Part shown: one piece after another, positions 4,169 through 61,783 of the stretch
How the letters are laid out: every line of letters begins with the position of its first letter
Position numbering within the stretch: the first letter of the stretch is position 1
Source of the DNA: a virus
Strand: one strand, 5' to 3'
Virus record (IMG/VR): IMGVR_UViG_3300023181_000028
Span: 16,012-80,011 of that record
Length of the DNA stretch: 64,000 bases
The notes under the pieces: generated by a model
Told to the model about the DNA's origin: nothing
Seen by the model: the letters and a program-made list of their open reading frames with translations, nothing else
The model's database searches: none
Position numbers and translations under genes: made by a program

Positions 4169-4529
4169 CATTTATGTAGTACTGGCAATTCTATTCATCC
4201 ATTGGATAGCGGATTTTATTTGTCAAAATGATTGGCAGGCTAAGAATAAGAGCAAGCGATTAGACGCTTTGTTATTACATACATTGACGTATAGCATGAT
4301 ATGGTTTATTCCTTGCGTGGCATACATTTGCGAAAACAAACATAATTTTAGTTATTTCTTTTTCATCCCAATTACATTTGTTTGCCACACAATTACCGAT
4401 TACTTCACAAGTAGATTAAATTCAAAGCTTTGGTCGGAAGGTAAGATTCATTGGTTCTTTGTAAGTGTTGGATTCGATCAAATCCTCCACTACGTTCAAT
4501 TATTATTAACCTATCAATTACTTAAATAA
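4161..4529 (+). CDS. DUF3307-like membrane protein
   Basis: HWIADF.CQ, H..TY, H..TD, GFDQILH motifs with TM segments. Confidence 0.7.
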   Translation: MINIYVVLAILFIHWIADFICQNDWQAKNKSKRLDALLLHTLTYSMIWFIPCVAYICENKHNFSYFFFIPITFVCHTITDYFTSRLNSKLWSEGKIHWFFVSVGFDQILHYVQLLLTYQLLK

Positions 4530-4738
4530 TGGGATTTTTTAATTTTGATTCCGACGAGGATAGTGATTTCAGGAAATATTCTGAAAAATATAAAGAGATA
4601 ACAGGAATTGAATATAGCGGGGATAATATTCACGATCTTAAGCGTCGAATAGAATCTGAAATTGACGGAGGATGGACTTCAATGAGGGAAGAAGGTAATT
4701 TAAATGAACTTTTAAGTAAAATAAAAGACAATGAGTAA
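4529..4738 (+). CDS. hypothetical protein
   Basis: Coupled ORF. Confidence 0.65.
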   Translation: MGFFNFDSDEDSDFRKYSEKYKEITGIEYSGDNIHDLKRRIESEIDGGWTSMREEGNLNELLSKIKDNE

Positions 4739-5060
4739 TTTTAGATGGCAGGCATTTAAGTCAACGGTTAAAGCGTGGTTCAATTTTAATTTTACGCACT
4801 GGATTAATCATTACTATTTAATCAAAGGGAATTTAGAAAGAGAAGATGCGAGGCTTAAAAAAGAAGAACTTGATAAAAAACTAACTGATGATAATTTTGC
4901 TGCCATTGTAAGGGATTTCTCATTTGAAGATAGCAAAGATCCGAAAATGACAGATTCATATAGGTGGGTTAGAAAAGAAGAAGAGGATGAAAATAACCAC
5001 TTCTTTAAATTGTACGGAAAAAGTTATTGGTTTCATGTATTTAAAAGCAAAAAAAGATAA
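4731..5060 (+). CDS. hypothetical protein (C-half weakly resembles portal N-terminus)
   Basis: Coupled ORF; see findings. Confidence 0.65.
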   Translation: MSNFRWQAFKSTVKAWFNFNFTHWINHYYLIKGNLEREDARLKKEELDKKLTDDNFAAIVRDFSFEDSKDPKMTDSYRWVRKEEEDENNHFFKLYGKSYWFHVFKSKKR

Positions 5061-5647
5061 TGGCGAAGAAACCAAGTAATAATTTCACTGAGGAGTTTTT
5101 TATTCAAAAGGGATTTTTACCTGATGGAAAAGGTGGGTGGAGTAGAGGTCCAATTGCATCCGAATACATACGTGAAAAGAAAGGAGAGTTAATTGCTAAA
5201 GAAAAGGTTATTGAAACTCCCGATTTTACAATTAAACCTGTGACTGAGTGGTGGATCGGCACACAGGTTCCATCAAAAAAGAACTGCCAGCAATTATTCG
5301 TTACAAGAACCAAACTAGGCAAGTATATACCAGGAACAACTACATCACAACGCTATAAAGATTACATTACAGCCACTAAAAACTATTGGACTGCGTTCGG
5401 CAAGGAATTTAGAAAATCCGTCCTTTTATTAGGCTTAAAAGAGCCGCTTCACGTAGAGTTTACATTCGTAAGGTCAACTCAACAAGTTATGGATTACGTG
5501 GGGCCTTTAGAGTCCGTACAGGATATTATGCAGGATTATGATTGGATAGACGGGGACGACTACAAGAGATTAAAGCCTTTCTTAGGAGATATAGAGGTGG
5601 ATAATAACAATCCGGGAGTACGTATTAAACTTTTAACCAACAAATAA
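5060..5647 (+). CDS. RusA-like Holliday junction resolvase
   Basis: VPSKKN motif; D....SVQD.M......DD acidic set; C-terminal NPGVRIKL. Confidence 0.65.
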   Translation: MAKKPSNNFTEEFFIQKGFLPDGKGGWSRGPIASEYIREKKGELIAKEKVIETPDFTIKPVTEWWIGTQVPSKKNCQQLFVTRTKLGKYIPGTTTSQRYKDYITATKNYWTAFGKEFRKSVLLLGLKEPLHVEFTFVRSTQQVMDYVGPLESVQDIMQDYDWIDGDDYKRLKPFLGDIEVDNNNPGVRIKLLTNK

Positions 5648-5648
5648 T

Positions 5649-5825
5649 ATGAAAACAATCTATTTTAAAAACGGAACAAGTGTTAAGGTGCCGCAAGTAA
5701 TAGTTAATTCTATATTTACCAAAAAAAATCTCGGACAGGCTACAAATGTTTTCGAGTCGTTTAGCGAAGATTCTGTAAATATAGACCTTGTGATTAATGT
5801 AAATGAAATAAGTCACGTTGAGTAA
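5649..5825 (+). CDS. small hypothetical protein (58 aa, not in ORF track)
   Basis: MKTIYFKNG...ISHVE fills the gap; stop overlaps next ATG. Confidence 0.65.
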   Translation: MKTIYFKNGTSVKVPQVIVNSIFTKKNLGQATNVFESFSEDSVNIDLVINVNEISHVE

Positions 5826-6244
5826 TGGGAGAGTTCCGGCCATATCCAAAACAAGGCGCTAAACCAAAGAAAGAACCCAAGCCTCTTAAAAGAACTGCTA
5901 TTAAGAAGAAGGTTAAAAGCACCGGAGAAAAATCAGTTTTCGAAGAGGTCCTAGACGATATCCCTTATGACGGGCCGACAAGATGTTTTGTATGTAATAA
6001 GCAGATATCAGTGGTGACGCATCATAATTTTAGCCATATTTTGAGCAAAGGGAAGTATCCATTGTTCCGCCTTAAGCCTGAAAATATTAAAATTATGTGT
6101 TTTAATTTCGTGGCGGTTAACGGAGACCAGGGATGCCATTATAACTATGATTTTAAGCCTCGTAGCGAACTTAAAGAAGAGATGTGGCAAAAGGTGTTTG
6201 AATTAGAGGAACGGCTTAAGAATGAATATAAACAACTAAAATAA
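5825..6244 (+). CDS. NinG/HNH-like nuclease
   Basis: CxxC...HILSKG.YP..R...ENI...CH. Confidence 0.6.
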   Translation: MGEFRPYPKQGAKPKKEPKPLKRTAIKKKVKSTGEKSVFEEVLDDIPYDGPTRCFVCNKQISVVTHHNFSHILSKGKYPLFRLKPENIKIMCFNFVAVNGDQGCHYNYDFKPRSELKEEMWQKVFELEERLKNEYKQLK

Positions 6245-6249
6245 CTAAC

Positions 6250-6498
6250 ATGAGAAACAGGACTCCAAGAAAAACAAAAAAGCAATTAGGTAAAATGTTA
6301 ATAATTTACGATAGAGCAGTGCTGCCGATTAACTTATCAATGTTAGACGTTCTAAATAGATTTAAAGACCACAAAGTTTTAGAGTGGGACTCAAGTGCGG
6401 CTGGTAACGTTAGTTGCATGAATATAATGAGTAGGCCAGTAATAATGAATTATAGGAAAGGATTTCAAATAAAAAACAATTCCTTACAAAATCTGTAA
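6250..6498 (+). CDS. portal-fragment protein (paralog of portal residues ~435-478)
   Basis: YDRA..PIN...E.DSSAAGN.S..N: 18/39 ungapped identities with the 46873..49098 product. Confidence 0.8.
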   Translation: MRNRTPRKTKKQLGKMLIIYDRAVLPINLSMLDVLNRFKDHKVLEWDSSAAGNVSCMNIMSRPVIMNYRKGFQIKNNSLQNL

Positions 6499-6536
6499 TA
6501 AAACCCACAACCTTTAAATCCTTACAAAAAATGTAT
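6484..6536. repeat. paired TTACA-N5-TGTAA palindromes, 38 bp period (pair 1)
   Basis: TTACAAAATCTGTAA at 6484; TTACAAAAAATGTAT at 6522 (1 mismatch). Confidence 0.75.
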
Positions 6537-6722
6537 AAATCAGAGAAGTTAATAGAGGAGTTGATCTCCGCCGGAATAATAACAGATAAGCTCTGTGACA
6601 AGGTTAAGGCCAGATTAATAATAAGACAAACCCTGATTGAAATACATAATGAGGCAGTACTTGAAACTGTTATGGCTCACAATAAAGCAACGTTTGTAGC
6701 CCCTCAATATTTAGATAAGTAA
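6531..6722 (+). CDS. hypothetical protein
   Basis: ORF in operon. Confidence 0.6.
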   Translation: MYKSEKLIEELISAGIITDKLCDKVKARLIIRQTLIEIHNEAVLETVMAHNKATFVAPQYLDK

Positions 6723-6740
6723 CCAATAAAAACAAATAAT

Positions 6741-6974
6741 ATGTCAAAGAAAAAATGTACAAAATGCGGAAAGGTTCGCCCCGAATACCAATACAGATGC
6801 GATTGTGGCGGGAGCAATTATTCTTTAACTAGCAAGGACAGTTCAAGTTATAGCACTTCATTTGACTATTCAAGTGATAGTAATGGATCATCTAATTCTA
6901 GCGATAGCAGCAGTAGCTCATTTGATTTCGGTGGCGGCGAAAGCGGCGGCGCTGGATCGGGAGGAGATTTTTAG
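6741..6974 (+). CDS. Zn-ribbon protein with Ser/Gly-rich tail
   Basis: CTKC...CDC; ends SSSSFDFGGGESGGAGSGGDF. Confidence 0.65.
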   Translation: MSKKKCTKCGKVRPEYQYRCDCGGSNYSLTSKDSSSYSTSFDYSSDSNGSSNSSDSSSSSFDFGGGESGGAGSGGDF

Positions 6975-7000
6975 TAATTAATAAATAAAAACAACCATAT

Positions 7001-7456
7001 ATGAGTAAATTTGAATTACCAGCTAATTTCCCTAAAGCAAGAAGGGGTAGCGTTATCCTTAAACAGGTGATACAGGGGACTTCCATCACTGACGGAGGTA
7101 TTATCCTTGCAGATGCCGCCGAGAACGTCCAGCGCCCTAATGTAGGTATTATATACGCCACAGGAGAAGGCGTAGGAGAAGATCTAGCCCCTGGAATGAA
7201 AGTGTATTACAATCAATACGCCAACCTTGAGCTTCATATCAATGGCCGTCCTTATTTCATGATGCATGACGCGGATATCTATTGCATATTGGATGATGAG
7301 AATCGCGTGGCTAATATCATTAAGCCAAAAGATGAAGTTCGCAGAGGTAAAAAGATCACCCAGCAGGCAGGAATGGTTAAGAGATTAGCTGTTAAAAGCG
7401 CTAACGACAAAGACAAAAGAGAAGAAACCTACAAAAAAATAATCAAGAAGAAATGA
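7001..7456 (+). CDS. groES: GroES/Cpn10-like co-chaperonin with basic C-terminal extension
   Basis: T.GGIIL mobile loop, G.I.ATGEG, PG.KVYYNQY, ING..Y..M...DI. Confidence 0.75.
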   Translation: MSKFELPANFPKARRGSVILKQVIQGTSITDGGIILADAAENVQRPNVGIIYATGEGVGEDLAPGMKVYYNQYANLELHINGRPYFMMHDADIYCILDDENRVANIIKPKDEVRRGKKITQQAGMVKRLAVKSANDKDKREETYKKIIKKK

Positions 7457-7785
7457 AAACTATCCAAAATCAAAAGCTAGTGTACATCACTAAAGAACCC
7501 AACGCTACAATGACGGCTATTGAGGATAAGCACAATGACTCTGATTATTTTAAACTAATAGAAGAGTCTTGTAACAGACCTACTAACCCTCAAGTGGGAT
7601 TTACATACGATGACATTAAAAGTATTGACAGGGTTAAAAAGGCTATTAAAGCCGCTAAGAAAGAGGTGATGAGCGTGGAGGATAAAGACTTTGAATTTAT
7701 TAAATCCCGCGTGGAAACTAAATCATGGGTGTCATCATCTATTGAAATAGCAGACTTTGTAGACTACATCAAAGGAATTAAATAA
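7453..7785 (+). CDS. hypothetical protein
   Basis: Last gene before bidirectional terminator. Confidence 0.7.
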   Translation: MKTIQNQKLVYITKEPNATMTAIEDKHNDSDYFKLIEESCNRPTNPQVGFTYDDIKSIDRVKKAIKAAKKEVMSVEDKDFEFIKSRVETKSWVSSSIEIADFVDYIKGIK

Positions 7786-7804
7786 CAATACACGCACACA
7801 AAGT

Positions 7805-7839
7805 AAAAAGCCTCCCTATTAACTTAAGGAGGCTTTTTT
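7805..7839. terminator. bidirectional intrinsic terminator
   Basis: AAAAAGCCTCC-loop-GGAGGCTTTTTT between convergent blocks. Confidence 0.85.
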
Positions 7840-7863
7840 AATTAGATTATATAAATTTACATT

Positions 7864-9087
7864 TTAACGAGTTATTTCTTGACCGCCGATATACGTAACA
7901 GTGCCAGTGCCAGTGGTAGCATATCTTATTCTTACATTAGCACCTCCCGGTATTCCGCCGCCTATCATAGTAGTTTGACCATTAGTAATCTGAATAGCCA
8001 CCGCTAAAGCCACAGAGCTTAAATTACCCGCAGGCTGCAATACAGCAGTCCATGTAGAACCGCCATTAAGACTATATTCTAAATACACTGTAGCCGTGCT
8101 AGATCCTGCCAACAAAGGATTTGACACTGAACAAGTCACATAATAATAAACTGTAGAAAAATTTGGAGATATAGTGAATCCCGTACTAGAAGTACTTGTA
8201 GTTACACCTCTTACAGGATTATTATTTATTGTTGGCTCAGCTAATGAAATAGTAAAATTAGGATAAGTGCCAGATATAGATACACCCTTTATTCCCGTTA
8301 AATTTACAACTTGGTCAGGAGCAGTATTAGTGATAACAGTATTAGTTACATTAATTCCAGTACTCCCACTATAAGATGTAGTTCCGGTTGGGATAGTCCA
8401 TGCGCGATTAGCTGATAAATCCTGAGATACTCCATTGATAGTTAAAGACCTCGTTAAAGGCGCTTTAGAGGCAATAGAGGAATTAATAGAAGCTATTGAT
8501 GCTGCCGCCCTATCTTTAGACATTAGTCCATTAGCACTACCCGTATCGGCTTTAATAACCATATTAGGCGCAGTTCCAGTCATTATCTCCCCGTATCCCG
8601 CCGAATAATTCATAATGGCAGGTAAGCTAAATGTTCTACTTGCTTGCATATTTTGAGTTATAGCAGTAGTTCCATTCATAATAGTGATAGTATTCCTTGC
8701 ATTTGCATACAATGTATCTGATTCAAATTTATGCCAATACACAGGTATATTATTCAAATCAGGAGCGTAAGACAAATCATAATAACTTCCACTTAATGCT
8801 ACACTTGCAAGGTTAGGCAGCACATCTATATCAAAACGATAATCTGGTCTTGCGGCAGGGTAAAACACACCAGATCCATCAAATCCTATATTAAATCCAA
8901 ATGTTTGCATAGTCGGGACGTACCTTGCAGGCTTAAACAGTACCGTGTCGGCCAGTGTTAGATACTGAGCCTTCACCTCTTTAGTTATTTCACTTGCTAA
9001 AATACCACCTCCCACTATTTTTACGGAGTTTTTGGCGGTGAACGAGAGCATTAAAGCTACAATCGGAATGGAGATTATTTTTTTCAT
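7864..9087 (-). CDS. tail-fibre-like protein with signal-peptide-like N-terminus
   Basis: RSLTINGVSQDLSANRAWTI and ISGTYPNFTI fibre motifs; starts MKKIISIPIVALMLSF. Confidence 0.55.
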   Translation of the reverse strand: MKKIISIPIVALMLSFTAKNSVKIVGGGILASEITKEVKAQYLTLADTVLFKPARYVPTMQTFGFNIGFDGSGVFYPAARPDYRFDIDVLPNLASVALSGSYYDLSYAPDLNNIPVYWHKFESDTLYANARNTITIMNGTTAITQNMQASRTFSLPAIMNYSAGYGEIMTGTAPNMVIKADTGSANGLMSKDRAAASIASINSSIASKAPLTRSLTINGVSQDLSANRAWTIPTGTTSYSGSTGINVTNTVITNTAPDQVVNLTGIKGVSISGTYPNFTISLAEPTINNNPVRGVTTSTSSTGFTISPNFSTVYYYVTCSVSNPLLAGSSTATVYLEYSLNGGSTWTAVLQPAGNLSSVALAVAIQITNGQTTMIGGGIPGGANVRIRYATTGTGTVTYIGGQEITR

Positions 9088-12591: not shown

Positions 12592-13275
12592 TTAACATCC
12601 GCAACCACAGTCGCATAAAGATTTAGCCTTGTTTATAAATAAATTAGCTTTTACATAATCCTCATATTTCACTGCGGATTCAGCAATAGAAAGATAGGAT
12701 TGTGATAAGATAGCCTTATTAGCTTCTTTACTATCGCATTCGCAATCAATCTCAACCTTATTGAATATCTCATCCATACAGCATTGAGTTGCAAGTTTTT
12801 GCAATATCATATCCGTAGTACTTAAATCGAACGCGGTGGGAGTTCCACTCACTGAGGTGCTACCCGTAATGTTATAAATAACACCATAAGCTCCGTCAAC
12901 TAGCGAAGGAAGATTATAGACCTGAGAAGACCCATACGTATAGCTATTTAACAACATAAAGCCATTTAGAGGGAATGTTGTGGAGTTTAGCTGAGATAGT
13001 ATAGTTTGAGCGCCAAGCCCGTTAAAATTGATTGTAGCGGCTGTAATAGTGCCATTAAGAATAGTAAAGGTATATACCGCAGAAACTTGTAATTGAGTGT
13101 AATTAACAGTTAAAACAAGACCTGTAACATCGTTTATTGCCACCCCATTAGGTGATCCATAACCAAAAGGCGCTGAAACAACATTGTAAGTCGGAGTGAT
13201 ATCAGTAATGTATAAAGTATCGAAAGCATTATTAAGTGCTAAGTCAACTTCTAAGTCTAATTGTGTTACTGGCAT
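12592..13275 (-). CDS. tail hub-like protein, paralog B
   Basis: GYG.PNGVA.NDVT, L.DG.Y, Cys-rich end CDCGCGC; paralog of 13355..14059. Confidence 0.55.
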   Translation of the reverse strand: MPVTQLDLEVDLALNNAFDTLYITDITPTYNVVSAPFGYGSPNGVAINDVTGLVLTVNYTQLQVSAVYTFTILNGTITAATINFNGLGAQTILSQLNSTTFPLNGFMLLNSYTYGSSQVYNLPSLVDGAYGVIYNITGSTSVSGTPTAFDLSTTDMILQKLATQCCMDEIFNKVEIDCECDSKEANKAILSQSYLSIAESAVKYEDYVKANLFINKAKSLCDCGCGC

Positions 13276-13354: not shown

Positions 13355-14059
13355 TCAGCACCCACAATTACACGCGCATATAGATTTAGATTTTTGTAAT
13401 AATTGGTTGTATAATGTGTAATCCTCTTTCTCCTCTGCGTATTTAGCTATATCCAAATAAGCCTTAGACCTCATAGTTTCTTTTAATTTCTTGTCATTAC
13501 ACCCGCAATCAATATCCATGTCATAAAAAGACTTATCTATACATGAACTAGATTCACAGTCTCTTATACAGGTATCGTTGACAGTGTAATCAAATATAGT
13601 TGGAGTGCCATTATCAGAAGCAGAGCCTCTAATCCTATAAGCCACATTATATTGACCGTCAGTTAAAACCGGAAGTGTAATAGTTGTTACAGGAAAAGAT
13701 GAGATATAAGGCCCAACTGTAATAAATGGATTAGAAGATGTTGGCGGGAATGTCAAACTAGGAAGATAAGAAGCGAGGGTAGGCACATTTATAGCACCTT
13801 GCCCGGCAAAATCAACTGCCATAGCCCCTATAACCCCATTAGTTATTAAAAAAGAGAAAACGGCAGTTATCCCCAAATTAACATAAGTGATGGTTATAAA
13901 CATCATAGTTACATCGTTAACCGCAACTCCATTGGGAACCCCGTAACCTAAAGGATTAGACACAGAATTGTAAAGTCCGGTTTCATCAGTTACTATTAAA
14001 TGCTTACAATCGTCACTAACGACAATCTTAGTTTTGAGGTTTATTTGAGTTAAGGCCAT
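13355..14059 (-). CDS. tail hub-like protein, paralog A
   Basis: Same motifs as 12592..13275; ends CACNCGC. Confidence 0.55.
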   Translation of the reverse strand: MALTQINLKTKIVVSDDCKHLIVTDETGLYNSVSNPLGYGVPNGVAVNDVTMMFITITYVNLGITAVFSFLITNGVIGAMAVDFAGQGAINVPTLASYLPSLTFPPTSSNPFITVGPYISSFPVTTITLPVLTDGQYNVAYRIRGSASDNGTPTIFDYTVNDTCIRDCESSSCIDKSFYDMDIDCGCNDKKLKETMRSKAYLDIAKYAEEKEDYTLYNQLLQKSKSICACNCGC

Positions 14060-20827: not shown

Positions 20828-21174
20828 AAGATATATTTATACCATTCGAACTAGCTTTATGGGCAAGAGATTTAGGATTTGACGAGCCTTGCGTTGGCAA
20901 ATACTCAGGAGGATCTAAAGAACTCAAAGTAGGCGTGATTAATCAGCAAATGGCTACATGGTTATTGGCCCCAACATATCAACAAATACTAGATTGGCTA
21001 AGAGAACAACATAGTATATTTATTAGTCATTCCCATGCTTCGTGGGGAGAAGATTGGTTTTATTCAGTTGGTAACGGAAACGTAAAATTACTTGTCACAG
21101 ACATTAAAGATTATTACGAAGCATTTGATTCATGTTTAATTAAAGTATTTAAAATAATAGACAAAAATGACTAA
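20824..21174 (+). CDS. hypothetical phage protein
   Basis: ELA...LGFDEPC...APTYQQ..DWLRE motif. Confidence 0.75.
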   Translation: MKDIFIPFELALWARDLGFDEPCVGKYSGGSKELKVGVINQQMATWLLAPTYQQILDWLREQHSIFISHSHASWGEDWFYSVGNGNVKLLVTDIKDYYEAFDSCLIKVFKIIDKND

Positions 21175-21883
21175 AGAGAAAATAGAATCAGTTTGCCGCG
21201 CAGTTGAAATATATATTCAATCTAGCGCCTATTACAAAGAATGTATTATCGGAGGAAACTTTTCAGGCAGGTTTAATGAGTTTTTAACTCAAGAAATTTG
21301 TAATCAAATAGTTAGGCAACATGAAAAGTTATTAAGCCAACTAAAAGCATCAGAATACGAAAATGGACATTTGTCTGGCAAAGTTTCTGATTTAGTAAGG
21401 TACATATCTGACCTTGATGAAGACTTTAAAAAAGAAGACGCGCGGAATAACGAACTCACTGATAAGGTGGCGGAATTAGAGTTAGGTATAGGCATATTGG
21501 AAGATAATTTAGATGCAGCTCAGGAGAAGATTTCGGAATATGAAGAAGCGATAGGGTTAAAATCTAAGCATATTCAACAATATCACGATTCTTTGTTAAA
21601 TAAAGATATCGAAATTCGTAAATGGCGAGAATTAGTTGAAAATATGAAATCAAACCACGCTAAAGAAACTGATAGTATTAGAGGGGATCATTGCGATTAT
21701 TTAAAAAAGGTATTGGGAGAGATGCAAATCATTAAGGGTTACAATCAGAATTTAATAAATGAATTAAGGCGTTGCAGAACACATATGCTTGAAGCTGGAT
21801 TTCATTCTCAGTCAGCGCCTATAACCGCGTTAGATCAAACAATACGTCAAAACACAATTGAATTAGGAGAACTTAGAGATTAA
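21167..21883 (+). CDS. coiled-coil hypothetical protein
   Basis: Heptad-rich ORF. Confidence 0.7.
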   Translation: MTKEKIESVCRAVEIYIQSSAYYKECIIGGNFSGRFNEFLTQEICNQIVRQHEKLLSQLKASEYENGHLSGKVSDLVRYISDLDEDFKKEDARNNELTDKVAELELGIGILEDNLDAAQEKISEYEEAIGLKSKHIQQYHDSLLNKDIEIRKWRELVENMKSNHAKETDSIRGDHCDYLKKVLGEMQIIKGYNQNLINELRRCRTHMLEAGFHSQSAPITALDQTIRQNTIELGELRD

Positions 21884-25346: not shown

Positions 25347-25399
25347 TTACAGATTTTGTAAGGAAATGCAATGGTTGTAAATTATTACAATAATTGTAA
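25347..25399. repeat. paired TTACA-N5-TGTAA palindromes, 38 bp period (pair 2)
   Basis: Sites at 25347 and 25385, between divergent promoters. Confidence 0.85.
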
Positions 25400-41809: not shown

Positions 41810-41955
41810 AAAAAAGCCTCCGGTTAAAGAGGCTTAGTAAAGTGTTCAGTCTTCACTTCGTAAACGTTTTATAGGTTTTATTTTAATCTCGGCGAACGTT
41901 AACCACTTTTAACCGAAAAGGATTGAGTTTTAAATCTATTACAAATATTGTAATG
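41810..41955 (-). ncRNA. candidate small RNA B (promoter 41959-41966, terminator 41810-41835)
   Basis: ~145 nt between TATATTTG and AAGCCTC-loop-GAGGCTTTTTT; no ATG ORF. Confidence 0.5.
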
Positions 41956-41991
41956 AAACAAATATAATTAAAATCCTTACAAATTCTGTAA
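41939..41991. repeat. paired TTACA-N5-TGTAA palindromes, 38 bp period (pair 3)
   Basis: Sites at 41939 and 41977 flank the -7 element at 41959-41966. Confidence 0.85.
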
Positions 41992-44102: not shown

Positions 44103-45596
44103 TTAAGATTTATAGATAATACCGCACTCTTGAGTGTTGTAAATAACCATTAAATCTTCTTTTAACATTGCGTATTTCATTACGTCTTCCTCTGAAATCA
44201 TTGTTTCATTGGCACCGGTCATACCGTTAAACTTAGCTGTTACACTTGCACGGTTTAATCCGTTTGCTTCTTTAGCAAGGATTTCCATGTTCATGTTAGA
44301 ACCAGAACCTAAATTCATAATGAATAAGGTAGAGCTTAACAATAGTTTTCCGTCAGCACCTCTCTCAGGGAACGCAGCTTCGTCATCAAACAACGGGTGT
44401 TTAACAAGGATCATTGTGTTACCATTGATGTTGAATTTACCGAAGTTGTATCCGGCATCCACGATTGCACCACCAGCTTGTCCATTTTGAGTTACATTAG
44501 TAACGATTTGGATGTTTTGATTACCAAGTAAGTTAATCAGTTTCTTTTGACCATTTGCATAGCCATCAGTACCGGTAATACCTACCCATGTGAATCCTGA
44601 CACCTTATCGCCTTTTTTCTCAAGTTGACCCATCATGTCAGCGATATCGTCTTCTGTCCACTCTCCGTTTAAGCCTGAACCGTATGCTACGTTACCGCCA
44701 GCAACTTGCTCTTCCCAGCCGTCACCTTGAACGATCTCAAGACCTGTTTCAGTATCAATTAAGTTTGAACTTGCACGGATAGTACCATCAGCATTTTTCA
44801 TACTTGATACACCAAACAACTTGTTACGCTCGTCTTCCATTACGAAAGTAGCTTGCGCTTGCGCTAATTCTTGATACATCCAACCTTTAGAGAAAGCTCC
44901 ACCTTCACCTTCGTAGTTATACCAAAGTACATTTGAAGCAGCTCCACCGGTGATACCAACAGTTTTACGTTGAATAGTCATGTGGTTAACAAACTTACTA
45001 GGCGCAGCCGAACGACCGTAACCACGAAGTGATTTCTCTCCATATGAAGTGTAAACTCCAAAGCAGGTTTTAGTTCCTTGTTGTGGCGCTACGTGAGTTG
45101 CATAGCTAAACAAATCACCAGATGGAGATTGGAAGCTATATAAGTAACCCGCAGAAGGGGAACCTGTAGGGAAAGCCATTACACGAGCGATAAAACGACC
45201 TGTGTAGAAAGCAACGTTCATTCCCGGTACTAAGTGCTTATCGCGCATTAACAACTGGAAAGAACCGTCAGGCTGAGTAGCACCAACTTGTTTAATGATC
45301 TCAGATGCTTTCTCAATACGACCCATAACGTCAAATTGATAAGCGTTTGCTCCGATACCTTTACCTTTAGTTGTTACTTGAGGAATTTTAGTACGCTCAG
45401 GGTTAACGATACCATAAGGTGTTACCGCGCCGGATACTAAGATTGTAGTTAAAGCTCTACGATTCGCATACTCTAACATGTTTCGGATTGCAGGCTTATT
45501 GGCCTGATTTTTCATAAGGTCATTGTTAGTAACACAAGTGTCTTCCGAAAATACACCTTGATTAATACTAATTCTACCTGCGTGTGATGATGGCAT
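44103..45596 (-). CDS. major capsid protein (crAss-type HK97 fold)
   Basis: 497 aa after portal and scaffold; N.MT.QRK, G.G..EQ, TG..G, G..F..F..NG, HPLFDD. Confidence 0.9.
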   Translation of the reverse strand: MPSSHAGRISINQGVFSEDTCVTNNDLMKNQANKPAIRNMLEYANRRALTTILVSGAVTPYGIVNPERTKIPQVTTKGKGIGANAYQFDVMGRIEKASEIIKQVGATQPDGSFQLLMRDKHLVPGMNVAFYTGRFIARVMAFPTGSPSAGYLYSFQSPSGDLFSYATHVAPQQGTKTCFGVYTSYGEKSLRGYGRSAAPSKFVNHMTIQRKTVGITGGAASNVLWYNYEGEGGAFSKGWMYQELAQAQATFVMEDERNKLFGVSSMKNADGTIRASSNLIDTETGLEIVQGDGWEEQVAGGNVAYGSGLNGEWTEDDIADMMGQLEKKGDKVSGFTWVGITGTDGYANGQKKLINLLGNQNIQIVTNVTQNGQAGGAIVDAGYNFGKFNINGNTMILVKHPLFDDEAAFPERGADGKLLLSSTLFIMNLGSGSNMNMEILAKEANGLNRASVTAKFNGMTGANETMISEEDVMKYAMLKEDLMVIYNTQECGIIYKS

Positions 45597-46872: not shown

Positions 46873-49098
46873 CTAAACCAAATCAGTGTTATTTATAATG
46901 TCATTTTCAGTCTGTAAAGACGTTAAATGCATATCGTTATTTGCCTTGTTATTGTCCACTTGCATCTGAACCTGACCCTTTAATACAATCTCTTCTTTCG
47001 CAGAATTTTGAATATCCTCACGATTTTCATTGGCAATCTGAATCTGAGTTTGAAGGTTAGCTTCGTTCATTTGAGCCTGCGCTTGGTTATTAGCCTCGTT
47101 TTGTTGCTGAATAACTTTTTGCATCTCAACCCAGCTGTTCTCTAATTTATTCTTCATCTCCGCCACAGTGGTGGATAAAAGAACATTTAAAGCATCCATT
47201 GGTCTGATATCCTTAGCATTTAAAGAAAACTCCATCATTCTCTTAATGTCCTGCTTGATTTCCATATAATGTCCGCCATCTTCCACGTGAACACCATAAT
47301 CCCTATATCCAATATCTTTAGTTAATTGCAAGTATTTTAACTTACTAGCCCCTAAAATATGTTCTCCCTTCTCTAATTTGTAAAACGCCCAAGATATAGC
47401 AGAACTATCTACAATCCCCTTCATAACCCTTGTAACAAAGCCATTCATCCCATAAAACAGGGATTCGGTGATTATCCGCGAATTAGCAATGTCATTCTGA
47501 GCATTAGTAGCCGTTGAACTCGCGGCAGTATTACCCTCTCTACCCTCATTAATACCTGTGATCTGACTCAAAGTATTAATAATATCCTGCTTCATAGCAA
47601 GTAAAAACTGAAACGATTGACTTAAACCTAAATCAAGTTCCTTAAACATATTCTGAGGATCTAAGTTCCTTTGACTTGTATTTCCGGCAGCACTCGAATC
47701 ATATTCATAAAATTGATCGTTATGAATATTGTACATCACTTCCTTAACAGTTTTATTAATTGGCTGTCCCGCGCGATCATACGTAAACACCTTACCTTTT
47801 GCCCTTGCAAGCTCTTTTAATATTTGATACATACATATATCAAACATATTATCAAAGTTCTCTATAATCTCCTGTAATGACACTGTAATGCCATTAACCC
47901 TACCGTGTATATAACCATAATAAGAACTACTCATTATATGAGCGGGCTTGTCAACACTTCTCTTCTGGAAGTAAGTCCTACGCATATTTACATCCACACA
48001 TCCACCAATTCTCGTGGCTTCATACTCATCTTCCTTATACTTAGTTATAATCTCGTACTCTCCACTTTCAACCTTCTTATCGTGATACTCCCTATTAGAT
48101 TCATATTTTTCCGGAATCATAGGTAAATCAATGTAATCCACATCGTCCTCCGAATCAAACATGGCCTGATCCGCTGATTTCTTAACCCTCTTTGTATATT
48201 CCGGTGTAACAGATTTCCATTCAATGTGCAATACATCACACACTAACTCTCCGCCAACCATTCTCATATATCCCCTACCTATTCCATCCGGCCCCGCGTA
48301 AGAACCCCAATTATCTCTGGCGTTCTCCAACATTAACCTTTGGTCTTTAGTGAGGTTATATCTCAATAAAATCTGGTGTAAAGGCATCACCCTTCTACAT
48401 CCTAATATAGGACTCTCTTCTAAATAATCATCTCCGTCAACCGCCTCAAAAATAGCATTCCTTACATCTATATTATGCAACTTCACCTCTCCGGTTTCGT
48501 CGCGTTCCACTTGCATAAAACAATGGCTATGCAACTCTAAGTTCTTAAAAGCATCTCCAAACTTCTTTTTAGCATCTAAATCCAATACTTGGTTATTAGC
48601 AATGATTTGCATAATATCCTCACATTTATCTTTAGGAGCCATCTTATCCCATAAAGGATCTTCTAAACTATCAGGAATAGGAGCGCCTTCCATTACATCT
48701 ACACCACCCTTATTCTTTAAATCCATCAATTCGGGCTTGGCTATCATAGCCCCAATCATAAAGTCTAATTGCTGCATTTTTGCAGACATAGCTTCTGAAT
48801 TAATAGTGGTGACAGTGGAAGATAACGGACGTTTTAAAAACTCCCCATGCAATAGGTCAATCTTAGTTCTACCTAAGCGATATGCAATGTATTTAGAACG
48901 GTTTTGTTTACCATAAGTCTTCTCTAACCACGCAAGACTTCCCGGCTGTTTAACGCCGTTGTAAGAGTCTAATAAACGGGTCATTTTACCGCTATAGCTG
49001 TTATTGTTTATTAGAAGCTGCTCGGCAAAATCCAAATGGGATTTTAACCAGGCTTCATTCTTGTCTTTAAGCGGTAAAAGTTGACTAGGAAACTGCAT
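46873..49098 (-). CDS. portal protein
   Basis: FP.Q......K...W N-terminus; L.GE..KRP; EWKS; ITGI...REG; follows TerL. Confidence 0.9.
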   Translation of the reverse strand: MQFPSQLLPLKDKNEAWLKSHLDFAEQLLINNNSYSGKMTRLLDSYNGVKQPGSLAWLEKTYGKQNRSKYIAYRLGRTKIDLLHGEFLKRPLSSTVTTINSEAMSAKMQQLDFMIGAMIAKPELMDLKNKGGVDVMEGAPIPDSLEDPLWDKMAPKDKCEDIMQIIANNQVLDLDAKKKFGDAFKNLELHSHCFMQVERDETGEVKLHNIDVRNAIFEAVDGDDYLEESPILGCRRVMPLHQILLRYNLTKDQRLMLENARDNWGSYAGPDGIGRGYMRMVGGELVCDVLHIEWKSVTPEYTKRVKKSADQAMFDSEDDVDYIDLPMIPEKYESNREYHDKKVESGEYEIITKYKEDEYEATRIGGCVDVNMRRTYFQKRSVDKPAHIMSSSYYGYIHGRVNGITVSLQEIIENFDNMFDICMYQILKELARAKGKVFTYDRAGQPINKTVKEVMYNIHNDQFYEYDSSAAGNTSQRNLDPQNMFKELDLGLSQSFQFLLAMKQDIINTLSQITGINEGREGNTAASSTATNAQNDIANSRIITESLFYGMNGFVTRVMKGIVDSSAISWAFYKLEKGEHILGASKLKYLQLTKDIGYRDYGVHVEDGGHYMEIKQDIKRMMEFSLNAKDIRPMDALNVLLSTTVAEMKNKLENSWVEMQKVIQQQNEANNQAQAQMNEANLQTQIQIANENREDIQNSAKEEIVLKGQVQMQVDNNKANNDMHLTSLQTENDIINNTDLV

Positions 49099-49261: not shown

Positions 49262-51283
49262 TTAAAATCCAAACTTTCCGTGATCTTGCTCTTCATCTTC
49301 CAAATTAAAGTTCTCAGTACGCATCATCAACTCTCCGTTACTACCCATTACAAACTCCGGCAAATCAAATCTATTATCCTTATCCTCATTGTTCTGATCT
49401 CTCGGCCTTACATCACAGCTTATATCTTGCATTAAAGCCAATCCATAAGCATCCGCCAAGTCATTATCACTCCCTATCTCCACCTCATCAAAGTTACCTA
49501 ATTGATTAATTAATTCAGGGAACCAATTATTCTGAACATTATCCACGATATCCGCTTGCATTAAACCGGACATTCTTGGTCTACTAAAATTAGTTAACCT
49601 AACACCCTTCTCATGTGTCTGCTCACTTGTTTCGCTCTCGAACTTTCTAGGACGGTCTGCTAAGAACTTCCATCCGCCATGCTCCCTAAAATATTCCATT
49701 ATAACTCCGGCACCCACATCCACAAGAACATTTCCTATAAGATTGTAATATACAGAAGCCATTAGGCATAACTCATAAAACTTCTCTTTTCGTTTAGGTC
49801 TACATGAAATAACTGCAATAGGAGCCTGAGACATTGCATTGTTAATATGATTAGCCCTTATTCTAATACACATTGCCCCTAATGATTTAGAGGCTTTAGC
49901 GGTGTCCTGGTCATAAGAATCAAGGCCGCTCGTGTGCAAATTCTGATAGCCTTTACGCGGATGCTCACCATCTATAATCCAAATACATTCATCTTGGTTA
50001 TCAAATGGTTTTAAAGGGGTGCAAATAACAGCCAAAGGCATTTTAATCATACCCTTGTCATCTTTCACCCATTCCATCTTATACTTAGTCCATCTTGGAT
50101 GTTCTAAAGCGTCAATTATAGCCATTTGATTGTTTAACTTCTCTATATCAAAGTTGTTAACCACTGTCTTTCGGAAGATTTCAGTTTCATTTAAAGGGTT
50201 ATTCTGTAAGTCCTCGTTGTATTCCTTTAGGTTGCCAGCTTTTAAGAATGCTGCCCTTCTATCCACAATAGCCTTTTCCGCCAAAGCTAAATCTTCCACC
50301 CCTTGTAATTGGAATGGTTTATATTTTTTAAGTAAGTCAGATTGAGTAGGAAGCCTTCTATTTGCCTCAGTTGCATTGCCATAAAAATACATTCTAGGCG
50401 CGGGAATTAAGAATTTAATCATTCCATAACTAGGATCGCTTGCGTTAGACCACAGCTTCTTAAAATCCCTAGAACCCTTGTTGACGTTGCCCCCGGTGCC
50501 AAAAAATAGCCCCATTCCGACCTTTTGACTACCATTCATTAAACAGTCATTAGTGGCGGATTTAAACTCTAACAACTTCTCAAACTCTCCAATCTCCTCC
50601 GCGATAACATCATTCAAATAAAGACCCTTAAACATATTAGGGTTAATGTGCATTGTTCTGGCATATATAGTATTCTTAGTTCCCTGCTCTTCAAAAGCTC
50701 CTAATGAATTACGAATATTGTATCCAGCGATAATCTCATCATCGTTGTCCAACAACTTCTTAACAGAAAACTCAGGAGGCATACCGCTATCCGCAAATCT
50801 CCATTTAGAAAGAAAATCATCTACGTAAGTTTTATTACCCGCGGCAACCCCTCCCTTATAACCCGGAAAGAATCTCCATCCATAATCAATAACCATTGTA
50901 CTGGCAGCCTCAGAAATACCCTTTCTACGGCCTTTAGCGCATACTATATCCTTTCCGACACTCTTAGCATATTCAATCAAATAAGCAAGCTCTAAATGCA
51001 AATCTATCATGTCAGGGGTGATAACCCCCTTAATGGTAGACATTCTTTTATAATTAATATAGAAATAGAACCTTCCAGGTATAAATACTCCTCCTGTTTG
51101 ATATCCGTGTATACACCTTCTTAACTCCTCAGTCCAGTACTCTTCCCATGCAGGGGTTCCGATAACTCTTTTATCTCTTATAGAGTCAGCATATTTAGGA
51201 ATGCCATATTTAATTACAGGGGCAGGCTCAAATCCCTTTCCTTTAAAATACGGAGCGCGGAGAACTATAGGACTTGAACTCAT
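49262..51283 (-). CDS. terL: terminase large subunit
   Basis: K.RRKG.S Walker A-like, VIAEEIG Walker B, FGTGG, GLDSY and D..DA nuclease motifs. Confidence 0.92.
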   Translation of the reverse strand: MSSSPIVLRAPYFKGKGFEPAPVIKYGIPKYADSIRDKRVIGTPAWEEYWTEELRRCIHGYQTGGVFIPGRFYFYINYKRMSTIKGVITPDMIDLHLELAYLIEYAKSVGKDIVCAKGRRKGISEAASTMVIDYGWRFFPGYKGGVAAGNKTYVDDFLSKWRFADSGMPPEFSVKKLLDNDDEIIAGYNIRNSLGAFEEQGTKNTIYARTMHINPNMFKGLYLNDVIAEEIGEFEKLLEFKSATNDCLMNGSQKVGMGLFFGTGGNVNKGSRDFKKLWSNASDPSYGMIKFLIPAPRMYFYGNATEANRRLPTQSDLLKKYKPFQLQGVEDLALAEKAIVDRRAAFLKAGNLKEYNEDLQNNPLNETEIFRKTVVNNFDIEKLNNQMAIIDALEHPRWTKYKMEWVKDDKGMIKMPLAVICTPLKPFDNQDECIWIIDGEHPRKGYQNLHTSGLDSYDQDTAKASKSLGAMCIRIRANHINNAMSQAPIAVISCRPKRKEKFYELCLMASVYYNLIGNVLVDVGAGVIMEYFREHGGWKFLADRPRKFESETSEQTHEKGVRLTNFSRPRMSGLMQADIVDNVQNNWFPELINQLGNFDEVEIGSDNDLADAYGLALMQDISCDVRPRDQNNEDKDNRFDLPEFVMGSNGELMMRTENFNLEDEEQDHGKFGF

Positions 51284-52931: not shown

Positions 52932-53671
52932 TAAAACGCTTCGTCTTCGTCTGTTATTACTGGAACTTCTGCTTTAACCTCTTTGGATTTCTTAGGCTTT
53001 TTAGTTTCAGATAGCGTTACTTCGCCACCATCCAACTCAAACTCCTCTTCAACTACAATAGAAAGATCTTCCGCCAATTCTGAATTGTGAATAATGATAC
53101 TACCGAACTTGTTTTCCAAAAGGCTTGTAGCGAAATCGCGTTGCTCATCAAGAGTTAATCCGTTAAATGTGTCCATTGTCATAGACTTCTCTTTTCCGGC
53201 CTCAATCCATCTTTGAGTTAATTCTTCGTCACTCACTTTTTTCTCACCCTCCAAATACAATTTGGTTTCAGTTAGGATATCCTTAGCGATAGCCACAACA
53301 TCTTCATAACCCTCATAATTGTCGATTTCCTCCACTTTAGGAGTGTTTAGCTTAATGTTCTTGTTCCCGAACACTTCTCTTTCTCCGTGCAATACAAAGC
53401 CCTCTGAATCAAATTCCAACCCTACAACCTGAGTCTCATAAAGCATGAATTTCATCTGATCTTCATCCTTTTGATTAGACATTTGACAAATATTCAATAA
53501 GTGAATACGAAGGTCTTTAAATAAATCTTCTAAGTCTTTATGGATTGGGTCTTTCGGCGACTTCACCATATCCGTGTTAGAAATTCTCTTTCCTTTTGTT
53601 TCAGGGAGGATGTAAACGACTTTTGCGCCATTAAACCCGTTGTTTTTTAGGGTGATCTTTTTTATATTCAT
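52931..53671 (-). CDS. conserved hypothetical protein
   Basis: IKKI.L, PIH.DL, LNTP, E...Y..G.K; acidic tail. Confidence 0.7.
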   Translation of the reverse strand: MNIKKITLKNNGFNGAKVVYILPETKGKRISNTDMVKSPKDPIHKDLEDLFKDLRIHLLNICQMSNQKDEDQMKFMLYETQVVGLEFDSEGFVLHGEREVFGNKNIKLNTPKVEEIDNYEGYEDVVAIAKDILTETKLYLEGEKKVSDEELTQRWIEAGKEKSMTMDTFNGLTLDEQRDFATSLLENKFGSIIIHNSELAEDLSIVVEEEFELDGGEVTLSETKKPKKSKEVKAEVPVITDEDEAF

Positions 53672-54006
53672 TTTTCGTTATTTACTTGTTTAATTCCAGT
53701 TGGTTGGTATAATCCGGTTTTAGTCATTCTAATAAATTCTTCCTCTATAACAGATTTGAATTTATCAATACCCTCTTCTCCCGTAATAATTATACATTTT
53801 TTCTCTTCCGCCTCAACTTGCCTAAACCAATCTCCCTCATCATCGTCTATTTCATCTGGATGATTAGCGTAATAATTTTTCATTCTTTCATTATCCATAC
53901 GCCATTTATCCAATTCTTCACCCTCCATGATAATACTATCATCAAATGGACTTGCCATGTAATTAAATGTCCGGCGTTGTTGATATTCATCGTTACTAGC
54001 ACTCAT
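53668..54006 (-). CDS. hypothetical protein with capsid-like motifs
   Basis: M..ER.K, GD.W..QV, ITG..G colinear with capsid residues 253-345. Confidence 0.6.
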   Translation of the reverse strand: MSASNDEYQQRRTFNYMASPFDDSIIMEGEELDKWRMDNERMKNYYANHPDEIDDDEGDWFRQVEAEEKKCIIITGEEGIDKFKSVIEEEFIRMTKTGLYQPTGIKQVNNEK

Positions 54007-54284
54007 GCCTTATTATTTAATTTATTATAAAAATCTTCGTTTATGAAGCCTTCCGACTTACCATCCTCAAAATTATACCACAAAACTTGACTTTCCCCAG
54101 ACCCACTTATTGTAAATGTTTTTCTCTGAATAGTCATGTGGTTAACCCATTTGTTTTTCGGCGGAGAAGGTAAACAGGTTTTTAATTCATCTTCTTTTGA
54201 AATTAAAAACTCCGGCACATTAGATTTAATCGCCGCGCCAACAAATAATACTCCTAAAGTTTTTAAGAAGCCTCCCCTATTCAT
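54003..54284 (-). CDS. capsid-fragment protein with Tat-like/hydrophobic N-terminus
   Basis: K.VNHMTIQRKT..I.G...S.VLWYN.E, 20/29 identical to capsid residues 201-229. Confidence 0.8.
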   Translation of the reverse strand: MNRGGFLKTLGVLFVGAAIKSNVPEFLISKEDELKTCLPSPPKNKWVNHMTIQRKTFTISGSGESQVLWYNFEDGKSEGFINEDFYNKLNNKA

Positions 54285-58151: not shown

Positions 58152-58880
58152 TAAAAATACAAACAAAATTATTTTTTATAAAAAATTTCCCAATGTGAAT
58201 TAATACCACATTCTGATATTATATGAAAGAACGGGGGCGGATACCTATGTAGCACTTTTTCCGTCTTAGAAAAAATAAACCGTGTGGGGGGCTTTGTTTC
58301 TGATGGCAGATCATTTGAGAATTTATTTATCTGTGAATTTATTAACTGAGGTTGCGCGGATAATCAACACACTTGTTAGATCTATTTGACATGTGTGTAT
58401 GCTAAATTATAATTGTGAGCATTACAGAATTTGTAAGGAAATAGATATGCGCTGAATCATTACAGATATTGTAATGAAAGTTAGTATATATGTTATGGAG
58501 ATATGTATAGTAAGTAAGGGATTAGTATATATATTAGCATAATCCTGGTATTATCCGCCAATTATCCCCTCACTATTTATAAAACTGTTAAATATGTTAA
58601 ATATGAGTGGTATCGCGATACTCAACGGTGGACAAAACGCACTTTACCTCCAAATTAGCCTCTATTTTAAGCCTTATTTCTGCCTAATTTCATTCACTAA
58701 CACGTAAATTGATAGATTTTGTGACAAATATTCAAATTAGGACACATGAGGGGTGCATAATACACGCTGATATTTATGTTAGTGATAATAGGGTGTTATA
58801 TGGGTAATTGTGAGGTGTTGGGATGTGGTTGTGGAGTGATATTGGGTTATTGTAGAGTGTTATGGTAATAATAGGTAGCT
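58152..58880. other. non-coding skew-switch region: candidate replication origin or genome terminus
   Basis: Largest gene-free stretch; divergent transcription; GC skew flips. Confidence 0.5.
58422..58474. repeat. paired TTACA-N5-TGTAA palindromes, 38 bp period (pair 4)
   Basis: Sites at 58422 and 58460. Confidence 0.85.
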
Positions 58881-61555: not shown

Positions 61556-61765
61556 ATGACACGTAAAGAAGGAATAACAACAAGCTACCAAGAGCGAACA
61601 AAAGACCCAGGACAGCCGCCGGAATCACTTTATTCGGCTGAATATAACAACTACACAGAGCAATGTATATGTTATTGTAACGAACAACCCAAGACATTTA
61701 AAGAATGGCTCAATGAAAACATAAAACCCCTTACAAGATCTGTAAGGAAATCAATAAATAATTAA
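61556..61765 (+). CDS. small hypothetical protein
   Basis: EY..Y......PKTF.EWL. Confidence 0.6.
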   Translation: MTRKEGITTSYQERTKDPGQPPESLYSAEYNNYTEQCICYCNEQPKTFKEWLNENIKPLTRSVRKSINN

Positions 61766-61783
61766 TCATTACAAAAACTGTAA
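61731..61783. repeat. paired TTACA-N5-TGTAA palindromes, 38 bp period (pair 5)
   Basis: Sites at 61731 and 61769. Confidence 0.85.

Follow-up and report, generated by a model that had tools for sequence, protein, structure and literature searches.

Small stand-alone homologues of the portal clip domain in a crAss-like phage lineage

The locus and its gene order

The window, by which we mean the whole stretch of 64,000 nucleotides that was analysed, comprises bases 16012-80011 of a virus record of 80,011 bp that is rated complete by CheckV, and its DNA is present in leaf-litter metagenomes. The virion genes are crAss-like: the major capsid protein matched the Pfam family Crass_capsid (E 2.3e-19) and the large terminase (49262-51283) matched phrog_6681 (E 1.8e-60). 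The closest portal proteins in GenBank, those of Cellulophaga phage phi14:2 and of gut crass-like phages, are just 21-25% identical to the one encoded here, which places the phage in a deep, uncultured crAss-like lineage. The following features were considered.

5060-5647, plus strand: gene for a RusA-like Holliday-junction resolvase (phrog_1682, E 1.1e-6), with orthologues in the related loci L020 and L023.
5825-6244, plus strand: gene for an HNH-like nuclease (phrog_5956), directly upstream of ORF82 and syntenic in all three loci.
6250-6498, plus strand: ORF82, taken from the ORF list, encoding a stand-alone clip-domain protein of 82 aa (assigned by homology).
6250-6294, plus strand: basic N-terminal arm of ORF82, MRNRTPRKTKKQLGK, without relation to the portal in the alignment of the family.
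6289-6432, plus strand: core of ORF82 (residues 14-61), homologous to the portal clip in a profile-profile comparison with hhalign.
6433-6483, plus strand: family-specific insertion (P-x-V-I) and last strand of ORF82, placed by the joint alignment with the shared positions K486/K73 and D489/D76.
6232-6483, plus strand: cassette of 252 nt, in place of which a close relative has 248 unalignable letters (run X2, record 5).
6484-6536, plus strand: one occurrence of a dispersed bipartite palindrome (TTACA-N5-TGTAA; imperfect second copy 38 bp away), at the right edge of the cassette.
7001-7456, plus strand: gene for a GroES-like co-chaperonin (phrog_3188, E 1.8e-8), the downstream syntenic anchor, with orthologues in L020 and L023.
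46873-49098, minus strand: portal gene (741 aa; phrog_6547 portal, E 9e-51; crAss001 gp20, PDB 7qog, E 1.4e-10).
47620-47799, minus strand: portal residues 434-493, the predicted clip domain and putative parent of the small family (BLASTP, hhalign and joint alignment), between helix 408-433 and the inner stem helix 492-514.

In the ORF list of the window the frame at 6250-6498 is open and has no rival. The stop codon of the upstream gene lies at 6244, ORF82 starts 5 nt after it and the next gene starts at 6531, so that ORF82 is the sole sizeable frame between the two neighbours. The second methionine of ORF82 (residue 16) coincides with the start point of those family members that do not have the arm.

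The HNH-like orthologues of the three loci matched phrog_5956 with E-values of 0.025, 0.048 and 0.0032. In the protein encoded upstream of ORF82 a CxxC motif, H71, N87, C92 and C104-H105 are conserved or invariant in 47 homologues. This protein had no Pfam match and no solved relative by sequence, and a tblastn search with it against GenBank phages returned no match. Its family is large (>177 clusters at E<=1e-5) and is characterized by the pattern CxxC...H...N...C...CH and a long basic N-terminus.

The gene order is conserved in two further phage contigs. In L020, a 71.6-kb IMG/VR contig, the RusA-like and HNH-like genes are followed by the small gene, whose start overlaps the preceding stop by 4 nt, two small ORFs and the GroES-like gene. 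In L023, a 7.3-kb metagenome contig, the order is RusA-like gene, HNH-like gene, one inserted ORF, small gene and GroES-like gene. Scans of IMG/VR and metagenomes with several family members yielded only these two additional loci. Between the window and L020 the proteins are identical to very different degrees: HNH-like 59%, portal 57%, orf63 50%, RusA-like 38%, GroES-like 37% and clip-like 33%. A predicted complex of the HNH-like protein and ORF82 received a score of 0.00, which carries no weight either way.

ORF82 is homologous to the clip domain of the portal

A BLASTP comparison of ORF82 with the portal of the same phage gave 21/62 identical residues (39.3 bits, E 3e-9) and paired residues 17-74 of ORF82 with 437-498 of the portal. 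The same pair was recovered with an E-value of 1.4e-7 when all 249 ORFs of at least 40 aa in the window were compared with each other, a search in which only four non-overlapping pairs scored below 1e-3. An earlier sequence-only reading had described an ungapped match of 18/39 residues to portal DNA at 47665-47781, and both the count and the position (portal residues 440-478) hold. Its description of the surroundings was also accurate: ORF82 has a basic N-terminus and lies about 41 kb from the portal gene, on the opposite strand, next to recombination genes (RusA-like, phrog_1682, E 1e-6; HNH-like). ORF82 also matched the portals of five other IMG/VR phage contigs with 30-33% identity. At the DNA level ORF82 and the portal gene are only about half identical and the third positions are scrambled, which shows that the likeness resides in the protein and is old.

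To compare profiles, we used 17 members of the small family and eight portals of the lineage. The two profiles matched with a probability of 96.7% (E 3.5e-10) over 48 columns, pairing residues 14-61 of the small protein with portal residues 434-481. A joint MAFFT alignment additionally placed the last strand of the family, I-K-F-I-D-L-S, on the portal sequence F-K-E-L-D-L-G-L-S (485-493), after the family-specific insertion. The similarity of the insertion and last-strand part to the portal is not significant on its own, and the extension of the match past residue 481 to about residue 493 is suggestive only. Conserved in both the small proteins and the portal clips are K434, Y440, D441, L445, P446, S468, A470, N473, K486 and D489 (portal numbering).

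In the portal of crAss001, gp20, the inner stem helix comprises residues 519-541 and the tunnel loops residues 550-563 (PMC10172136). A HMMER alignment transferred these elements to residues 492-514 and 523-536, respectively, of the portal encoded in the window. An AF2 model of the whole portal, based on eight sequences, was poor (pLDDT 43) and was read for the order of secondary-structure elements only; it showed a long helix (408-433) and a second helix (493-513) with a non-helical stretch in between. The homologous segment 434-493 thus lies between helix 408-433, which has a low pLDDT, and the stem helix 492-514. In T4 gp20 the clip, consisting of three strands and a helix, joins the two stem helices outside the capsid, where it docks the terminase gp17 and the neck protein gp13 (PMC4493910). 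Since residues 434-493 form the stretch between the outer and inner stem helices, the position of the clip in T4 gp20, we assign them as the clip. Judged from these alignments, they represent the whole domain, whose two boundaries are also the limits of the small protein.

The sequence-only reading had placed the segment after a long helix and had called it a probable clip domain to which terminase and neck proteins dock. All three points gained support: helix 408-433 precedes the segment in the low-confidence portal model; the segment stands directly before the inner stem helix and has a strand-helix-strand make-up; and, besides the T4 clip with gp17 and gp13, the clip of crAss001 docks the tail barrel. 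The description of ORF82 as a detached copy of portal residues of about 435-478 stands with respect to homology. It does not stand with respect to extent and age, as the likeness covers the whole clip (about 434-493) and ORF82 is not a recent copy of its own portal.

An AF2 model of ORF82, built from a 17-sequence alignment, predicted a confident small alpha/beta domain (pLDDT 86.6) with strands at 17-19, 43-46, 64-66 and 73-76 and a helix at 31-41, i.e. the order strand-helix-strand-strand-strand. When compared with PDB structures, the only chain with Z>=2 was the crAss001 portal (7qoi_FB, residues 457-516), a weak match with a Z-score of 2.0 and an rmsd of 3.4 A over 49 residues. These residues of gp20 are the place predicted by the sequence alignment, and the weak match is taken as corroborative only. 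A wider structural search of the PDB with the model gave no chain with Z>=2, and Foldseek returned E-values of 5-9 only. The family profile did not match any portal among the PDB sequences, crAss001 gp20 included, which is consistent with an origin of the family inside the present lineage.

ORF82 is one member of a family of small proteins

The sequence-only reading had named a lack of conservation in relatives as evidence against its claim. We found at least 20 small proteins and the same locus order in L020 and L023. The family comprises at least 20 clusters, of which 19, including that of ORF82 itself, came from a profile search. In an exhaustive phmmer search with ORF82 the small proteins were 35-42% identical to it, and a word-based protein search with ORF82 alone found only ORF82 itself. 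Two top-ranking phmmer matches (P0002 and P0003) were rejected as spurious, being repeat proteins. Most members are 73-90 aa long and two are longer fusions. In the latter about 100 extra residues each are located at the C-terminus (P0009, 189 aa) or at the N-terminus (P0024, 173 aa); these extra parts had no Pfam or PHROG match and could hint at partners.

In the alignment of 17 members the optional arm is followed by a common plan, I-L-I-Y-D...L-P, a helix, G-I-V-x-W, S-x-A-x-G-N, P-x-V-I and I-K-F-I-D-L-S. The arm motif M-x-x-R-x-P-R-K-x-K-K is present in 11 of the 17 aligned members, while the other six start directly at the first strand. Position 76 of ORF82 is N; D is found there in 94% of the family and in all portals.

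No member of the small family was matched by any Pfam or PHROG family. Searches of GenBank phages gave no match either, both with ORF82 (tblastn) and with positions 4500-8000 of the window (blastn), and an ESM Atlas search yielded no usable match. Free-standing clip proteins were not described in Pfam, in PHROGs or in the literature that was searched.

ORF82 is a real gene and not a stray fragment, as indicated by the at least 20 intact members, their conserved motifs and hydrophobic pattern, the confident fold and the conserved gene order. Frame, length and place are retained across the family, including the synteny in L020 and L023. Most likely, ORF82 is functional and represents a hitherto undescribed family of small proteins from phages, for which we propose a function below. 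By homology it represents the clip domain of a portal and not a portal: at 82 aa, with homology to the clip only, it has none of the stem, wing and crown.

A single old duplication best explains the family

In a maximum-likelihood tree one branch (100/99) parts 17 small proteins from nine portal clips. This single split is best explained by one old duplication followed by faster change. ORF82 has a branch length of 1.29 compared to a median of 0.25 and does not stand beside its own portal. The mean identity is 39% among the small proteins versus 67% among the portal clips, and only 20-40% identity is left between the two groups. In deep comparisons, however, the clip-like proteins are 33-38% identical versus 28-38% for the RusA-like and GroES-like neighbours; given this similar rate in the neighbours, the fast evolution of ORF82 is not exceptional at depth.

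The family would thus have arisen by one duplication of the clip domain alone from a crAss-like portal of the lineage. The copy would have had its ends at the borders of the two stem helices, and the short basic arm and the insertion before the last strand would have been acquired by most members.

We also looked at gene conversion or co-evolution of a small protein with its own clip, for which we found no case. The identity of ORF82 is 34% with its own clip and 26-30% with other clips; for P0022 the values are 28% and 26-28%, so that it shows no cognate excess.

The gene is exchanged between close relatives

Contigs from three leaf-litter runs were aligned to positions 5000-8000 of the window. 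A contig of 2,041 nt from a close relative aligned to 5879-6231 (38 differences in 353 nt) and to 6484-7739 (54 in 1,256 nt), corresponding to a flank identity of about 89-96%, and the replaced middle is almost exactly ORF82. This replacement between near-identical flanks indicates that the gene is a swappable cassette. The HNH-like gene is kept in the close relative while the cassette differs. In another run (X1, record 2), the probable source sample, a low-depth variant (depth 2.1 versus 17.3) covers 6189-6239 and departs after 6239 into a different gene start, which indicates within-sample variability of the slot that follows the HNH-like gene. A portal fragment moved by homing would have near-identical DNA and would travel with the HNH gene; here the DNA is about half identical to the portal, and the HNH-like gene stays when the cassette changes.

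The right edge of the cassette is marked by the palindrome. Nine exact TTACA-N5-TGTAA sites were counted versus 0.16 expected, and five palindrome pairs, each with two copies at a spacing of 38 bp, could be aligned (6484-6536, 25347-25399, 41939-41991, 58422-58474 and 61731-61783). At the first of these the palindrome supplies the final four codons and the stop codon of ORF82, and the L020 gene ends in the near-identical TTACAAATCTGTAA. From this region, contigs from other places matched only 6484-6535. The palindrome probably serves as an operator or promoter where transcription units begin.

Other paralogous ORFs in the window

The genome harbours a second partial copy of a virion protein. 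An ORF of 93 aa (54003-54284, minus strand) corresponds to residues 187-229 of the major capsid protein (44103-45596, minus strand), with 23/43 identical residues (BLASTP E 4e-13).

Two other pairs of related ORFs were observed. Beside the capsid copy, an ORF of 112 aa (53668-54006, minus strand) is 34% identical over 47 residues (E 2e-4) to an ORF of 238 aa located 32 kb off (21167-21883, plus strand), and the two may represent a third small paralogue pair. The adjacent genes 13355-14059 and 12592-13275, both on the minus strand, are full-length paralogues (41% over 234 residues, E 3e-56).

Discussion

Our comparisons relate ORF82 to known clip domains in different ways. With the portal clips of the lineage (PHROG 6547 type) it shares sequence homology. 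With the clip of PhiCrAss001 gp20 (PDB 7QOG/7QOI; PHROG 6547) it shares the location along the chain with respect to the inner stem helix, and its model aligns, weakly, with gp20 457-516. In contrast to a crAss-type portal clip, ORF82 is a separate protein of 82 aa, without stem, wing and crown, with a basic arm and an extra insertion, and its gene lies in the recombination block, at a distance of 41 kb. The T4 gp20 clip (residues 279-358) likewise has three strands and one helix between stem helices, and as a docking site it offers a functional model for a mimic. However, it has no detectable sequence similarity to ORF82, and it is part of a dodecamer in which a strand is shared between subunits.

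The explanation that we favour, and hold to be reasonably probable as a whole, is that the family consists of clip-only duplicates of the portal and that ORF82 acts as a clip mimic. In its most likely mode of action ORF82 would imitate, in soluble form, the exposed tip of the portal and engage a factor that would otherwise bind the clip; taken alone, this mode has a chance of somewhat below even, while a mimic in the generic sense has one of slightly above even. Candidates for the partner for which the free clip copy and the portal would compete are the terminase, the neck and a portal sensor of the host. Expression would be early or middle, as judged from the location in a replication/recombination block on the strand opposite to the virion genes. 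The partial copy of the capsid protein in the same genome lends support to this mimic theme. It should be kept in mind that much of the likeness between ORF82 and the clip could be fold-determining and not partner-binding.

A different use of the same surface would be the regulation of the phage's own packaging or neck assembly, in which the free clip binds the large terminase or the ring-1 adaptor before filled heads are available and thereby keeps them inactive or chaperones them, or in which it caps portal monomers and so times the assembly of the ring. Such a regulator would fit with the clips of T4 and crAss001, to which terminase and neck or tail barrel dock, with the retention of the loop motifs S-x-A-x-G-N and Y-D...L-P in small proteins and portal clips and with the GroES-like assembly helper nearby. 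We nevertheless consider it unlikely, because the swapping of the gene among close strains is at odds with a conserved partner from the phage's own machinery. Moreover, the family occurs in far fewer clusters than its HNH-like neighbour (about 20 versus >177), and ORF82 is encoded far from the virion block. Somewhat more doubtful is a reuse of the clip fold in DNA processing, e.g. as an accessory subunit of the HNH-like or RusA-like nuclease with the basic arm binding nucleic acid. T4 endonuclease VII is reported to associate with the portal gp20, a precedent for a contact between a nuclease and a clip. The adjacency to the RusA-like and HNH-like genes in three phages, with the 4-nt overlap in L020, and the basic arm in 11/17 members would agree with a nuclease subunit. 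On the other hand, another ORF separates the HNH-like and small genes in L023, the close relative kept the HNH gene when the cassette was replaced, and six members have no basic arm.

Finally, ORF82 might be a non-functional remnant, either a portal fragment in decay that recombination left behind or a mobile HNH gene brought along, or a similarity due to chance. The adjacent HNH-like gene, the long branch of ORF82 and its lack of the near-invariant D76 would be compatible with decay. However, the E-values are far beyond chance, the domain boundaries are exact, and at least 20 divergent members have an intact frame; synteny is conserved and the fold is predicted with confidence. With DNA only about half identical to the portal, ORF82 is also no recent by-product of homing. 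This explanation is already largely refuted, and we regard it as highly improbable.

Returning to the clip mimic, the exchange of the cassette between near-identical strains suggests that its partner is more likely a variable opponent than the conserved terminase or neck. Such an opponent could, for example, be a host sensor of the portal protein or the packaging part of a rival phage. Bacterial STAND sensors are triggered directly by the portal protein (Avs4, Avs11) and by the major capsid protein, and these are the two proteins of which small copies exist in the present genome. A decoy for a host sensor is one form of the mimic and a rather unlikely one. An extension of it, that ORF82 and the 93-aa capsid copy are both fragment decoys, produced independently of the virion programme, that bind host receptors for portal and capsid proteins without activating them, seems improbable to us. 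If it holds, strains would exchange decoy alleles in step with changes in the receptors. Since STAND sensors are reported to enclose extensive parts of the target surface, a piece of 60 residues may not suffice as a decoy. In the literature that was searched we found no decoy made from a fragment of a sensor trigger, nor a confirmation of the statement in the sequence-only reading that Avs4-type sensors read the clip.

The portal clip is the hub for the packaging motor and then for the tail, and the portal is also recognized by bacterial immune receptors. Neither Pfam nor PHROGs nor the literature that was searched describes a gene of this kind, which encodes the hub alone, is conserved as a family and is rapidly exchanged. 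If ORF82 is a true mimic, it would provide a testable handle on the timing of packaging and neck assembly and on how phages blunt pattern-recognition immunity.
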